Source: a virus
Taxonomy: Duplodnaviria > Heunggongvirae > Uroviricota > Caudoviricetes
IMG/VR virus record: IMGVR_UViG_2563366878_000014
Strand: one strand, 5' to 3'
Length of the DNA: 4,830 nt
A model generated the notes under the pieces. It did no database searches. It was not told the DNA's origin and worked only from the letters and a program-made list of their open reading frames with translations. The translations under genes and the position numbers were made by a program. Positions 1,680 through 4,830 of this stretch are shown one piece after another. Position 1 is the stretch's first letter; the number at the start of each line of letters is the position of its first letter.

Positions 1680-2103
1680 TAGAAATTGGGGCGATATTCC
1701 TCCTAATGTAGCACCGCGTATTTTTGATTTTTCTGGTGTGCCACCTATTGAGTCAATTACATACGCTTTTAACACAACTGAGAAATATTACGGTCAGCTT
1801 TATATGCAAACTTATAAAGCGTCGACAAGTACTTACGTTTCTAGTGTGTTTGCTGGTCGAACTGATGTTCGAAAATTCATTGGTGGTTTTAATATTTATT
1901 CTGATGGTACTAAACGAGTAGTTTCTAACGGTGAGGCTACTAAAACTATGAAAACGGAGTGGACGGGCGTAAAAACACGGACCTTTATTCGAATTGGAGG
2001 TCAAGCCACATCGGGAACTCGTCATCTATTCGGCCATTTGAGAAATCTTCGTCTCTGGCATAAAGAATTAACTGATGCGCAAATGGGGGAGAGTATTAAA
2101 TGA
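1674..2103 (+). pseudogene. Duplicated 3' fragment of the fibre gene (last ~143 codons, including the lectin-like C-terminus) with no proper start or RBS.
   Basis: Identical to 858-1287. The frame opens only after TAA at 1663-1665. There is no ATG with an SD; the ORF track start at 1738 is an internal GTG. Confidence 0.7.
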
Positions 2104-2381
2104 AAGATTTAACACTCAAATTTGCAGACAGGGTCGACTTTTCGGCCTTTATGGAGAGCATTGGCTATTATGATGACGAGTCGATGCAGGATGATATTCT
2201 TATTGACGTGATAGGTAATGTGTACAAAGAAACCGGAGAACTTACTGAAGATGGCGAGCCGGTATGTGTTAAGGAGGACGGATATTTTGTAAATGTGCGC
2301 ATCATTAATGATTCGCAAATATCGTCATTATTCGATGAACACGCGGTTGCTGTTGAGCATCAACTCCGTAGCTGGATGTGA
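2100..2381 (+). CDS. Hypothetical acidic 93-aa protein (copy 2, identical to 1284-1565).
   Basis: Identical sequence with the same RBS, carried inside the duplicated fibre fragment. It could be expressed by read-through transcription. Confidence 0.6.
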   Translation: MKDLTLKFADRVDFSAFMESIGYYDDESMQDDILIDVIGNVYKETGELTEDGEPVCVKEDGYFVNVRIINDSQISSLFDEHAVAVEHQLRSWM

Positions 2382-2390
2382 GGAAGAAAA

Positions 2391-3095
2391 ATGGCTACAT
2401 CGACAGTAATTCCTGATGACATCAAAACGCTAAAGGGAGATGTCAGTAAGGCAAAGGAAGATATTTCCTCAATTAACGTAAAAGTATCAACGCTTCAGAC
2501 TGATATGGACAGTGCAAAGCAGGATATCAGTACCAGATACACAAAAACAGAAGTGGATAATAAGCTGAAAAACAAAGTGGAAGTGAACGATCTGGAAAGT
2601 GGTCGTTATGGCGGAGATTTTTACCCGCTGACTGGCCGTGAAGCGTTTTATTTATGGGGATTGGGCACAACTACAGCGGCGGCAAATCTTTATCTTAATC
2701 CTGACCCTGCAATTTCGTCTGTGCTGCGGTCAACATCGTCTATCCGCTATAAACATTCAGTAGAGACGATAGATTCAGAGCACGCCGATCTCATTTTCAG
2801 GATGCGCCCTGTGTGGTACAGGTCGCAATGCGAAAATGACAGGCGTGACTGGGGATTCTATGGATTGATTGCCGAGGAAGTAGGAGAAATTGCCCCTCAG
2901 TTTGTTCACTGGCGACCAGCCAACGAAGATGATGCACCGGAAACCATTTCCAGCAATGGCCTTGTTGCCGAAGGTGTAATGTACGAACGTCTGGTTGTTC
3001 CACTGATTCACCATATCCAGAAACTGACTGAAAGAGTTGATGAACTTGAGTCAGAATTGAAGTTGTTATCAACTTCCCAAAGCGATATCGGATAA
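2391..3095 (+). CDS. 234-aa fibre-like protein: N-terminal coiled-coil-like region plus C-terminal domain resembling the phage intramolecular chaperone (Peptidase S74-like) domain.
   Basis: Strong RBS GAGGAAG 5 nt before the ATG. C-terminal motifs LIFRMRPVWYR, GLIAEEVGEIAPQFV and VMYERLVVPLIHHIQKLTERVDELESEL match my recollection of the S74 chaperone-domain consensus (LRPVxY / GxIAQEV..P / Y..LVPLL..IKEL). Confidence 0.8.
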   Translation: MATSTVIPDDIKTLKGDVSKAKEDISSINVKVSTLQTDMDSAKQDISTRYTKTEVDNKLKNKVEVNDLESGRYGGDFYPLTGREAFYLWGLGTTTAAANLYLNPDPAISSVLRSTSSIRYKHSVETIDSEHADLIFRMRPVWYRSQCENDRRDWGFYGLIAEEVGEIAPQFVHWRPANEDDAPETISSNGLVAEGVMYERLVVPLIHHIQKLTERVDELESELKLLSTSQSDIG

Positions 3096-3105
3096 AGGAG
3101 GAGTA

Positions 3106-3399
3106 ATGGATATAACACCTTTTCTTCATGCGCTTTGTGCTGTGGCTGCGCAGGTAATGATTGGTCTTTTTACCGGAAACTGGGTTTACGGGGCGATAGC
3201 CGGTTGTACGTTCTTCATTGCGCGTGAACACACCCAGGCAGAATATCGCTGGATTGAAATGTTCGGGCATGGCAAGCGGATTAACATGCCGTGGTGGGGC
3301 GGTTTTGATCCGCGTGTTTGGGATGTGGCAAGCCTGATAGATTTTGCTGTGCCGGTGGTGGCGTGTCTGCTGGTCTGGCTGTTGGTTAATCGTGGGTGA
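3106..3399 (+). CDS. 97-aa small predicted inner-membrane protein (2-3 hydrophobic helices), hypothetical; possible moron.
   Basis: Strong RBS AAGGAGG 4-5 nt before the ATG. Hydrophobic stretches FLHALCAVAAQVMIGLFTG, WVYGAIAGCTFFIA and VASLIDFAVPVVACLLVWLLV. Spot-checked lines are GC-richer than the upstream genes. Confidence 0.7.
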   Translation: MDITPFLHALCAVAAQVMIGLFTGNWVYGAIAGCTFFIAREHTQAEYRWIEMFGHGKRINMPWWGGFDPRVWDVASLIDFAVPVVACLLVWLLVNRG

Positions 3400-3409
3400 A
3401 AAAAGGTGA

Positions 3410-3529
3410 GCTGTATATGCAACGGAGGAAGAAACCCCGTTGCTGGAAGCCTGGAAAAAGTATCGGGTGTTGCTGAACCGTGTTGATACGTCAACTGCAC
3501 AGGATATTGAATGGCCAGCACTGCCGTAG
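3410..3529 (+). pseudogene. tfa: 3' remnant of a tail fibre assembly (Tfa-family) gene: conserved C-terminal 39 codons only.
   Basis: Frame 2 reads [39 protein letters not shown] then TAG, the C-terminal signature I recall for lambda Tfa / Mu U / P2 G-type proteins. An in-frame TGA at 3407-3409 sits immediately upstream and there is no start or RBS. Confidence 0.75.
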
Positions 3530-3605
3530 GGTAAAACATATAAATTCTATAATTAGATGTATCTTTCCATTTACGGCAAGGAAGGGGGCTTGGAAGACGT
3601 AAAGC

Positions 3606-3628
3606 ATCTCACACCGAGATTATTTTTT
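3606..3628 (+). terminator. Weak candidate intrinsic terminator for the + strand gene string (5-bp stem ATCTC/GAGAT, then TATTTTTT).
   Basis: Hairpin 3606-3620 followed by a T-run at 3621-3628. The stem is short and AT-rich, and the site overlaps the recombinase stop on the other strand. Confidence 0.25.
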
Positions 3629-4217
3629 ATATGTCAGGTGTCTGAAGTTTTGCTTTGGCTCTTAAAATGGTTTGCCGCGAGGTTTTGAATTCCCGGGCAA
3701 TGGCACTTATACTTACACCTGACTTAATTCGTTCGAATACCACCTGTTTCTGTTCTTCATTTAACACAGGTGGTCGACCAAAACGTTTCCCTGCGCCCCG
3801 GGCTCTTACTATCCCGGAATGAGTGCGTTCAAGTAAAAGGTCTCGTTCAAATTCAGCGACTGCTGAAATTACTTGCATCATCATTTTTCCTGTTGGACTG
3901 GTCAGGTCAATGCCCCCCAATGCTAAGCAATGCACTCTGATACCTGTTTCGGTCAGTTGTTCCACTGTTTTCCTGATATCCATTGCATTACAACCAAGGC
4001 GATCCAGTTTTGTCACAATCAATTGATCACCACATTTCAGGCGAGCAAGCAACCGGTTAAAACCAGGACGCTCACTGGTTGCTGCTGAGCCGCTAATGTG
4101 TTCTTCGATTATTTGCTGAGGTTTGATTTTAAAACCTGCACTTTCGATTTCCCGGCGTTGATTTTCGGTGGTCTGATCCAGAGTTGATATCCGACAGTAA
4201 GCAAAAATTCGAGACAT
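3627..4217 (-). CDS. pinR: Small serine recombinase, DNA invertase/resolvase family (Pin-like), 196 aa.
   Basis: N-terminal YCRISTLDQ with the catalytic Ser, central LDRLGCN...[16 protein letters not shown], and C-terminal GRPP plus helix-turn-helix are hallmarks of the Hin/Gin/Pin and resolvase family. Length and sequence match my recollection of E. coli prophage PinR/PinQ; I cannot tell those two apart without a search. Convergent with the tail-fibre genes. Confidence 0.93.
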
Positions 4218-4596
4218 AGTGAGACTCTATACGAAATTGGTGTACATATCATAATGCATATCCAAAAATTATTTCGCTTATTATTGCACATATTTGTATG
4301 TATACGTTCGAAAATAAACAAATTCGGATGCAGTCCCGTAATTTTGGTGTAACCCAAAATCGATTTTTTGAAAAATGGCTTTAACTCGGTTTGTTTTTCG
4401 AACTCCGGGCGGACTCGAGAAAGACGAATAATAGTGTTGTATGTTGTTTTAGCCAGATTTCAATTTGTTTGGTCTTGGAAAAGTGGAGCAAAAAGTTGTT
4501 AAAGTGGAAAAATGGTAAAAAAGTAGGTTGTTGCGGCATAACGTAGTTGTTGATATTTTTTAATGCATTGAAAAATTATTTTTCAGGGGGTGTTTA
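4218..4596 (-). promoter_or_regulatory. AT-rich intergenic region upstream of the recombinase gene; expected to hold its promoter, exact -10/-35 not resolved.
   Basis: 379-bp non-coding spacer. Contains the dyad ATTTTGG-TGTAAC-CCAAAAT (4341-4360) and three GTTGTTG repeats (4495-4552). A TATGAT -10-like hexamer on the - strand lies about 30 nt upstream of the ATG. Confidence 0.3.
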
Positions 4597-4830
4597 TTAC
4601 ACTTTACCATTTAAATTTTGGTTGTCTTTAAGAACTGATATCGCTGTTTGTAATAATTCTTTGTTATCCAGCCATGACTTTTTCTTTATGTTTCCTTCAA
4701 TGTAATCAAGCAATGTTCTGGTATTGATAGGTCTTCCCTGTTTTGCCACTTCCACGACAGCATCTCCCAGGATAATTCTGACTTCAGGAAGCTGCGCGGG
4801 GAACCACTTTAGGGTGTCTTTTGATTTCAT
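4597..4830 (-). CDS. ynaE: 77-aa hypothetical protein in the position of Rac ynaE / Qin ydfK (cold-shock-induced prophage gene family); start ATG is at the window edge.
   Basis: Complete 77-codon ORF from ATG at 4830-4828 to the stop at 4597-4599. Same strand as and directly upstream of the Pin-like gene, as I recall for pinR-ynaE and pinQ-ydfK in E. coli K-12. Symbol is assigned by position and length from memory, not by verified alignment. Confidence 0.6.
   Translation of the reverse strand: MKSKDTLKWFPAQLPEVRIILGDAVVEVAKQGRPINTRTLLDYIEGNIKKKSWLDNKELLQTAISVLKDNQNLNGKV

Follow-up and report, generated by a model that had tools for sequence, protein, structure and literature searches.

A membrane protein gene of the PHROG 1443 family behind the tail fibre gene of an Escherichia coli lambdoid prophage: a plausible candidate for a phage accessory or exclusion protein

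The window analysed here, the whole stretch of 4,830 nucleotides of IMG/VR record IMGVR_UViG_2563366878_000014, is the right end of an Escherichia coli lambdoid prophage. On its plus strand, an open reading frame (ORF) with an ATG start encodes a membrane protein of 97 amino acids that belongs to the PHROG 1443 family (3106..3399, +, stop codon included). A Shine–Dalgarno motif, AGGAGG (3096..3101, +; read from the sequence), lies 4 nt 5′ of the ATG and is the strong ribosome-binding site (RBS) reported in a preliminary description of this DNA. It abuts the TAA stop codon (3093-3095) of the preceding gene, the gap between this codon and the membrane protein ORF being 10 nt. The preceding gene (2391..3095, +) encodes a short tail fibre of 234 amino acids with a C-terminal Peptidase_S74 intramolecular chaperone domain, detected by Pfam with an E-value of 4.6e-06, above the Pfam cut-off, and matched also by tail-fibre PHROGs. 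On the other side lies a 3′ remnant of tfa, 36 codons and a stop (3419..3529, +), which is a pseudogene according to the RefSeq annotation of an identical locus in E. coli. Both the placement between fibre and tfa remnant and the GC contrast with the upstream genes stand as first described: GC content is 52.0% in the membrane protein ORF (52% at third codon positions, GC3) versus 39.6–44.7% (GC3 27–44%) in the three upstream ORFs.

Several complete genomes match the 401-nt segment 3050-3450 with 100% identity. One of these is NZ_CP032145, where the gene order runs from the tape measure gene to J, lom, a 796-aa side tail fibre, a 93-aa hypothetical protein, the 234-aa ‘tail fiber domain-containing protein’, the 97-aa hypothetical protein WP_001545206, the tfa pseudogene, a Pin-type recombinase, ydfK and then the host gene prfC. 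In the window, the 93-aa acidic ORF (PHROG 1361/18574, unknown function) is found at 2100..2381 (+), with a duplicate at 1284-1565. In most of the E. coli close-relative loci it occurs together with the membrane protein gene, an ORF of this type stands immediately upstream of the gene in four distant loci, and it may be a fibre chaperone.

The product of the gene is a protein of about 97 residues with three predicted hydrophobic helices and is read as a cytoplasmic-membrane protein. Hydropathy delimits hydrophobic stretches at about residues 4–39 and 74–96, and an AlphaFold2 (AF2) model with a mean pLDDT of 90.4 places helices at residues 4–23, 26–53 and 74–96. Both methods give three helices, which bears out the earlier view of a small polytopic membrane protein with 2–3 transmembrane (TM) segments. 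Helix 1 (residues 4–23; 3115..3174, +), defined by AF2, hydropathy and conservation, is hydrophobic and contains an invariant His8. Helix 2 (residues 26–53; 3181..3264, +), defined by AF2 and alignments, is hydrophobic in its first half, with a GxxxG motif (G29–G33), and carries the conserved polar motif A-R-E-H-T-Q-A-E-Y-R-W-I in its second half. Conservation marks out the Trp-rich loop that follows (residues 54–73; 3265..3324, +), G-x-G-K-R-x-N-M-P-W-W-G-G-F-D-P-R-x-W, and hydropathy, AF2 and conservation concur on helix 3 (residues 74–96; 3325..3393, +), which is the most hydrophobic part and in which D79 and P83 are conserved.

When aligned, close and distant members display variable hydrophobic helices and a nearly invariant polar signature, composed of H8, R40-E41-x-x-Q44-A-E-Y-R-W-I50, G-x-G-x-R58-x-x-M-P62-W-W-G-G-F-D68, W72, D79 and P83. 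Among 180 members from alpha-, beta-, gamma- and deltaproteobacteria, the residues H8, R40, E41, Q44–R48, R58, P62, W72, D79 and P83 are near-invariant, and the polar signature residues should be grouped at one membrane face. Counts of Lys plus Arg (5.5 on the side of the N-terminus and loop 2 versus 1.6 on the opposite side) tentatively favour a cytoplasmic location of the N-terminus and loop 2, but loop 2 is near net neutral and the C-termini of alphaproteobacterial members are basic. A lipoprotein of the Cor/Llp type had been rejected at the outset, and rightly so: the lipobox L-[AS]-[GA]-C is absent from the protein, its N-terminus (M-D-I-T) is free of basic residues, C11 is preceded by Leu at position –1, and C11 is not conserved among family members.

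The match to PHROG 1443, a catalogued family whose function is listed as unknown, is full-length (E 5.6e-58, 194 bits, residues 1–96 on profile positions 1–96 of 97). The family comprises 564 clusters at 90% identity and 437 at 50% identity across Proteobacteria, all of them stand-alone proteins of about 90–130 amino acids, and it is carried by temperate and some virulent phages of several proteobacterial classes. In E. coli, 1897 of 5426 complete genomes (35%) carry the gene, with a median of two copies and up to seven per genome. The exact 97-aa protein is present on about 1000 contigs. The 78 full-length copies compared represent 42 distinct alleles, every one of them intact, with a dN/dS of about 0.13–0.14. 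Given the full-length family match, the intact alleles and the low dN/dS, the ORF lies far beyond chance; ORF 3106-3399 is a functional gene under purifying selection.

Searches for a function returned none. Scans of the window protein against Pfam and NCBIfam gave sub-threshold noise only (for example PhoR, E 0.38), PADLOC defence-protein models gave no family at E-values up to 1, PDB sequences searched with a profile yielded a single hit of no significance (E 0.53), Foldseek against BFVD gave nothing at E 0.001 or better, and annotated PHROG families gave no match. Homology to a known structural or holin family, named in the preliminary description as an outcome that would speak against an accessory gene, was looked for by profile search and did not appear. 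Database names of cluster members are uniformly ‘hypothetical protein’, and a literature search found nothing on WP_001545206, PHROG 1443 or DUF5658, nor a paper on the gene in the PhiR phages. DUF5658 enters the picture through an Ideonella prophage protein of 197 amino acids, of which residues 1–90 are PHROG 1443-like and residues 108–189 match this membrane domain (PF18902), itself uncharacterised. The window protein has no match to the DUF5658 profile; the two are therefore different domains and the Ideonella protein is a fusion.

The behaviour of the gene in E. coli was followed in 85 close-relative loci (individual fetched loci are designated below by L and a number), classified by upstream gene. 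The 234-aa S74 fibre with the 10-nt gap precedes it in 49 loci, a different S74 fibre of about 349 amino acids (Peptidase_S74, E 4.9e-14) with a 42-nt gap in 27, and an orf93-like gene directly in six; two more loci retain only a 3′ remnant of the 349-aa fibre, and the last has an ORF of no listed class, probably an insertion sequence. In the 349-aa arrangement (L018, 5965-5989), a terminator-like hairpin GGGGCCGAGCGCCCC, then GTTTTATT, occupies the space between fibre stop and RBS. This hairpin has a 5-bp GC stem and lies 21 nt 5′ of the ATG, which leaves no space for a promoter between them, the 42-nt gap holding both hairpin and RBS. The unit formed by fibre 3′ end, hairpin and gene is kept despite truncation or replacement of the fibre (L003, L015, L035).

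Near-identical copies stand behind at least three different upstream genes, and also occur in P22-like phages and phage-plasmids; the membrane protein gene moves between phages as a cassette. Its edges are sharp. In six inspected E. coli lambdoid copies, the homology block has one edge exactly at the ATG, while at its other end it reaches an identically truncated 3′ end of tfa, and the tfa remnant motif is found just 3′ of the gene in 56 of the 63 assessable close-relative loci. The remnant is the co-inherited 3′ flank of the cassette, and the common tfa junction points to a single ancestral junction later spread by recombination, and it suggests one ancestral replacement of the stf tip and tfa by a block with the S74 fibre or the membrane protein.

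In phage genomes at large, the gene closes the late structural operon or stands very near its end, and it is nearly always located directly behind a receptor-binding gene. Lambdoid mEp460_4F5 and a 108-kb phage-plasmid display the order J, Stf, orf92 and membrane protein gene at the late operon end. In P22-like vB_EcoP-611R6, the order is tailspike, OafA O-acetylase, a 37-aa fibre remnant, the membrane protein gene and int, while EC.W1-9 has a tailspike, a 47-aa ORF, the membrane protein gene, Phage_holin_8, Phage_holin_3_7, endolysin and Rz. A Comamonas prophage presents a J-like protein, a 72-aa ORF, the membrane protein gene, two membrane proteins and a PHROG 3108 member, and fibre genes of the DUF4376 type precede the gene in a metagenomic phage. 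In prophages of Comamonas nitrativorans, Pigmentiphaga humi and Ideonella dechloratans, the gene is inserted 5′ of avd and a reverse transcriptase gene of a diversity-generating retroelement (DGR; loci L117 and L118, about 6725-10051, and L167, 3825-7319). The upstream gene in L117 is a 403-aa Mtd-like ORF whose C-terminal end, as read from the sequence, resembles a variable region, and L118 is similar; at the Ideonella DGR locus, whose family member is the DUF5658 fusion, it is an untyped 364-aa hypothetical protein. Pfam gave no match for the upstream gene in either L117 or Ideonella.

Partial copies are found in two further phages. In Salmonella Kuttervirus KFSST3 (L159, 3501-3656), an unannotated fragment lies behind an unnamed 675-aa gene in the tailspike cluster, and in Escherichia phage HC6 (L158, 3501-3662) one lies behind an 859-aa hypothetical gene, the last large gene of the late strand. 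These copies cover residues 1–52 and 41–94 with 40–50% identity, start 22–39 nt 3′ of the large late genes and look like debris from receptor-binding module exchange. Exceptions to the receptor-binding position are Aeromonas phage 62AhydR11PP and one metagenomic phage, where the gene lies 3′ of a PHROG 1544 membrane protein, as well as Aeromonas jumbo phages. The possibilities that PHROG 1544 represents a GTA-type three-TM holin and PHROG 3108 a transglycosylase-like endolysin were considered, and neither was confirmed by Pfam; according to iterative HMM searches, neighbours of these two types occur in just 2–3 fetched loci. Likewise, no kinship was detectable between the 125-aa and 134-aa downstream membrane proteins of the Comamonas prophage and EC.W1-9, and a downstream ORF apparently conserved in GC-rich genomes turned out to be an overlapping-frame artefact.

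Outside phages, stand-alone chromosomal copies are found among housekeeping genes in Aeromonas and in Sphingomonadales (next to ligA, cdd and others). Three Aeromonas loci, one per species (A. rivipollensis, A. aquatica and A. media), have the gene immediately 3′ of pirin or of an ORF that shares its C-terminus with pirin, and these copies (L006, 6001-6309; L092 and L095, about 8001-8288) show 56–58% identity. L006, the one Aeromonas locus with called genes, has host genes only, including a convergent RIO1 kinase gene, and phage genes are absent, which suggests a vertically inherited or domesticated copy.

The preliminary description had proposed the gene as a candidate moron, and this proposal holds in part. 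Morons, as defined by Juhala, Hendrix and colleagues, are extra genes of deviant GC content at a permissive late-region site, with block edges at gene ends, found behind different upstream genes in otherwise related phages; all these traits are shared by the gene of the window, which has a deviant GC content and moves as a block behind varied upstream genes. A strict lambdoid moron, however, is a gene with its own promoter and terminator, and neither was found for the PHROG 1443 gene. A simple consensus scan, which may miss weak or internal promoters, detected no sigma-70-like promoter on the plus strand between 2300 and 3106, and a simple scan of 2300-4400 detected no terminator-like site. 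Moreover, in the 349-aa arrangement the terminator-like hairpin is upstream of the gene, not downstream. These differences indicate end-of-operon late cargo rather than a classical moron, and the term fits the PHROG 1443 gene solely in a loose sense. The gene is probably read by late (antiterminated) read-through transcription: with a hairpin before it in the 349-aa arrangement and no promoter found, its expression looks tied to late read-through, and for the same two reasons expression in the lysogen is doubtful.

Taken together with its position, the architecture of the protein makes the PHROG 1443 gene a reasonable, plausible candidate for a phage accessory or exclusion protein. The reading that we tentatively favour, while granting that it may well be wrong, is an autonomous inner-membrane accessory protein acting in superinfection exclusion at a generic membrane entry step. 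Its gene would be transcribed together with the late or tail-fibre genes rather than from a separate promoter, and the protein would work autonomously in the membrane, as argued by the stand-alone chromosomal copies and by the lack of a conserved partner gene. Its target would be an envelope or inner-membrane component conserved across Proteobacteria and not a strain-specific surface receptor; unrelated receptor-binding partners combined with a class-wide invariant polar site point to such a conserved partner as the probable one. The protein may block or disturb a cytoplasmic-membrane step needed by an incoming phage, for example channel formation or DNA translocation, in a mode like that of T4 Imm, HK97 gp15 or P22 SieA. 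The benefit would fall to the infected cell late in infection and possibly to the lysogen through read-through expression.

HK97 gp15 and T4 Imm are small inner-membrane superinfection-exclusion proteins, gp15 reportedly being the subject of Cumby et al. 2012. The PHROG 1443 protein would resemble them as a small polytopic inner-membrane protein encoded in or at the end of late/structural blocks, accessory to virion production and proposed to act at the DNA-entry step rather than on an outer-membrane receptor. It differs from them in having no annotated PHROG or PADLOC hits, in being far more conserved across classes, in its chromosomal non-phage members and in the lack of a detected promoter of its own. 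The Cor proteins of phi80, N15 and T1 and Llp of T5, on the other hand, are secreted receptor-blocking lipoproteins with a signal peptide and a lipobox, specific for FhuA. They share with PHROG 1443 a gene immediately beside the receptor-binding gene and co-inherited with it, but the PHROG 1443 protein is polytopic and devoid of a lipobox, lies behind unrelated receptor-binding proteins and has a loop that is invariant across taxa, differences that argue against receptor specificity. Receptor masking thus appears unlikely, because the polar loop is near-invariant from alpha- to gammaproteobacteria and unrelated receptor-binding proteins precede the same protein. A mechanism of the kind proposed is used by the immunity proteins of E1-type pore-forming colicins, three-TM proteins of about 100–115 amino acids, which recognise an incoming membrane-inserting protein within the membrane and thereby protect the cell. 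They agree with PHROG 1443 in size and in their three membrane helices as well; however, PHROG 1443 has no Pfam match and is surrounded by phage tail genes, not by colicin operons.

Several observations weigh against exclusion at the membrane. Homology lends it no support, PADLOC and annotated PHROGs being empty, and such conservation of polar residues resembles a catalytic or ligand-binding site more than a typical exclusion protein. Furthermore, the non-phage chromosomal copies suit a cellular function equally well, the adjacency to receptor-binding genes could reflect hitch-hiking at a permissive operon-end site, and expression in lysogens is doubtful with no promoter found and a hairpin ahead of the gene in one arrangement. 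A bolder version, possible but doubtful, would see in PHROG 1443 a previously unrecognised, widespread class of receptor-binding-linked inner-membrane proteins, whose invariant interfacial His/Arg-Glu/Trp/Asp site would bind an envelope component universal among Proteobacteria (for example a lipid carrier, a lipid head group or some conserved protein of the inner membrane) and so block a generic step of genome entry or envelope assembly. If true, about one-third of E. coli genomes would hold, in 1–7 copies each, an uncharacterised factor that excludes phages broadly or modifies the envelope, and the chromosomal relatives in Aeromonas and Sphingomonadales would be domesticated.

In a first alternative, a rather unlikely one, the protein would serve general cell physiology and be carried by phages as fitness cargo, for instance as a small membrane enzyme, a protein that binds lipids or ions, or a stress protein, with no direct role in conflicts between phages. 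Stand-alone copies in housekeeping settings, in Aeromonas (pirin) and in many Sphingomonadales, speak for it, and the near-invariance of His, Glu, Asp, Arg and Trp across proteobacterial classes suggests a defined binding or catalytic site; the one natural fusion to another membrane domain, DUF5658, also agrees with it. It is less at ease with the strikingly constant position right after the receptor-binding gene in phages, with the fact that no known enzyme fold or family was detected and with a length of 97 amino acids, very small for an enzyme.

It is unlikely that the protein is a lysis accessory of the membrane, produced along with the late genes and resembling a holin or an antiholin or setting the time of lysis. 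Class I holins such as lambda S105 have likewise about 100 amino acids, three hydrophobic helices and late expression, and in a few phages the PHROG 1443 gene adjoins lysis genes: in EC.W1-9 it lies directly 5′ of Phage_holin_8, Phage_holin_3_7, endolysin and Rz, in a metagenomic phage it closes a block with an M23 peptidase, and in 62AhydR11PP it follows the PHROG 1544 membrane protein beside PHROG 3108. Phage_lysozyme was found within two genes downstream (four hits in 114 downstream ORFs scanned), and alphaproteobacterial members have basic C-terminal tails. Yet the window protein has no match to Pfam holin families at E-values up to 1, and a Pfam scan of 51 distant members gave a single weak Phage_holin_8 match (E 0.0036); the window protein also lacks a dual-start motif and ends in V-N-R-G, without the charged tail typical of holins. 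EC.W1-9 possesses its own two Pfam holins, endolysin and Rz, and lambdoid carriers are expected to encode S. The missing profile match, the missing charged tail and the separate holins of EC.W1-9 argue together against a holin, and neither the long conserved polar loop nor the chromosomal orphans are holin-like. Finally, in the window the gene is flanked by a fibre gene and a tfa remnant, lysis genes being adjacent in a minority of distant phages only, and the S-R-Rz lysis cassette of lambdoid phages is known to form the promoter-proximal part of the late operon, at a distance from the genes for tail fibres.

Distinctly unlikely is a lysogenic-conversion factor that would modify or inhibit the assembly of surface polysaccharides (O-antigen, capsule or EPS), after the model of phages D3 and epsilon15, which encode small membrane inhibitors of the O-antigen polymerase. 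The gene does adjoin receptor-binding proteins of the polysaccharide type (S74 fibres and tailspikes), in 611R6 it lies two genes after the OafA O-acetylase and just before int, and a conserved target in lipid carriage or glycan assembly would be in keeping with the conservation seen in different taxa. However, the protein has no similarity to the GtrA, Oac and Wzy families, its expression from the prophage is doubtful, and the gene is also found after Mtd-like and J-like proteins, which are not known to bind polysaccharides; nor are Sphingomonadales known to have classical LPS. Lastly, an assembly or maturation helper of the adjacent receptor-binding protein, or a virion component, is most improbable, for while the adjacency is kept across many phage types and a gene right after a fibre gene is classically that of its chaperone, the predicted, largely membrane-embedded location and the chromosomal orphans without phage genes nearby argue against a fibre chaperone, the same protein (>90% identical) follows structurally unrelated fibres, and S74 fibres have their own intramolecular chaperone.

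The interest of PHROG 1443 lies in a family that is common, under purifying selection and endowed with a sharply defined conserved site, with no assigned function, and whose constant place behind unrelated receptor-binding genes recalls the comparative-genomic pattern of Cor and Llp. Should it prove to be an exclusion or envelope-acting factor, it would account for part of the prophage-mediated phage resistance in E. coli, bear on the choice of therapeutic phages and introduce a fold and a function that are new among small membrane proteins; if it has no measurable effect, it is just another conserved hypothetical prophage gene.

Some features of the rest of the window deserve mention. One of them, further upstream, is a perfect 816-bp tandem duplication with two exact 817-nt copies, 857-1673 and 1673-2489, that have base 1673 in common. 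It takes in the final 427 nt of the Stf-like fibre gene, the 93-aa ORF in full and the initial 99 nt of the 234-aa fibre gene, leaving behind a truncated 34-aa ORF (1575-1679) and a 121-aa fibre fragment (1738-2103). None of the 5426 complete E. coli genomes and none of the fetched loci has the duplication junction, not even an IMG/VR contig otherwise 100% identical; the duplication therefore reflects either a very recent event or an assembly artefact. Downstream, a 196-aa Pin-type serine invertase (Resolvase and HTH_7; PHROG 125, DNA invertase) is encoded on the minus strand at 3627-4217. An invertible segment was looked for, and neither suitable inverted repeats nor a second fibre/tfa set was found, so that the invertase appears to be orphan. 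At the prophage end, on the minus strand at 4597-4830, lies a cold-shock-like ydfK/ynaE gene, near which the matching genome has dinI-like and YnaM/YnfT genes.
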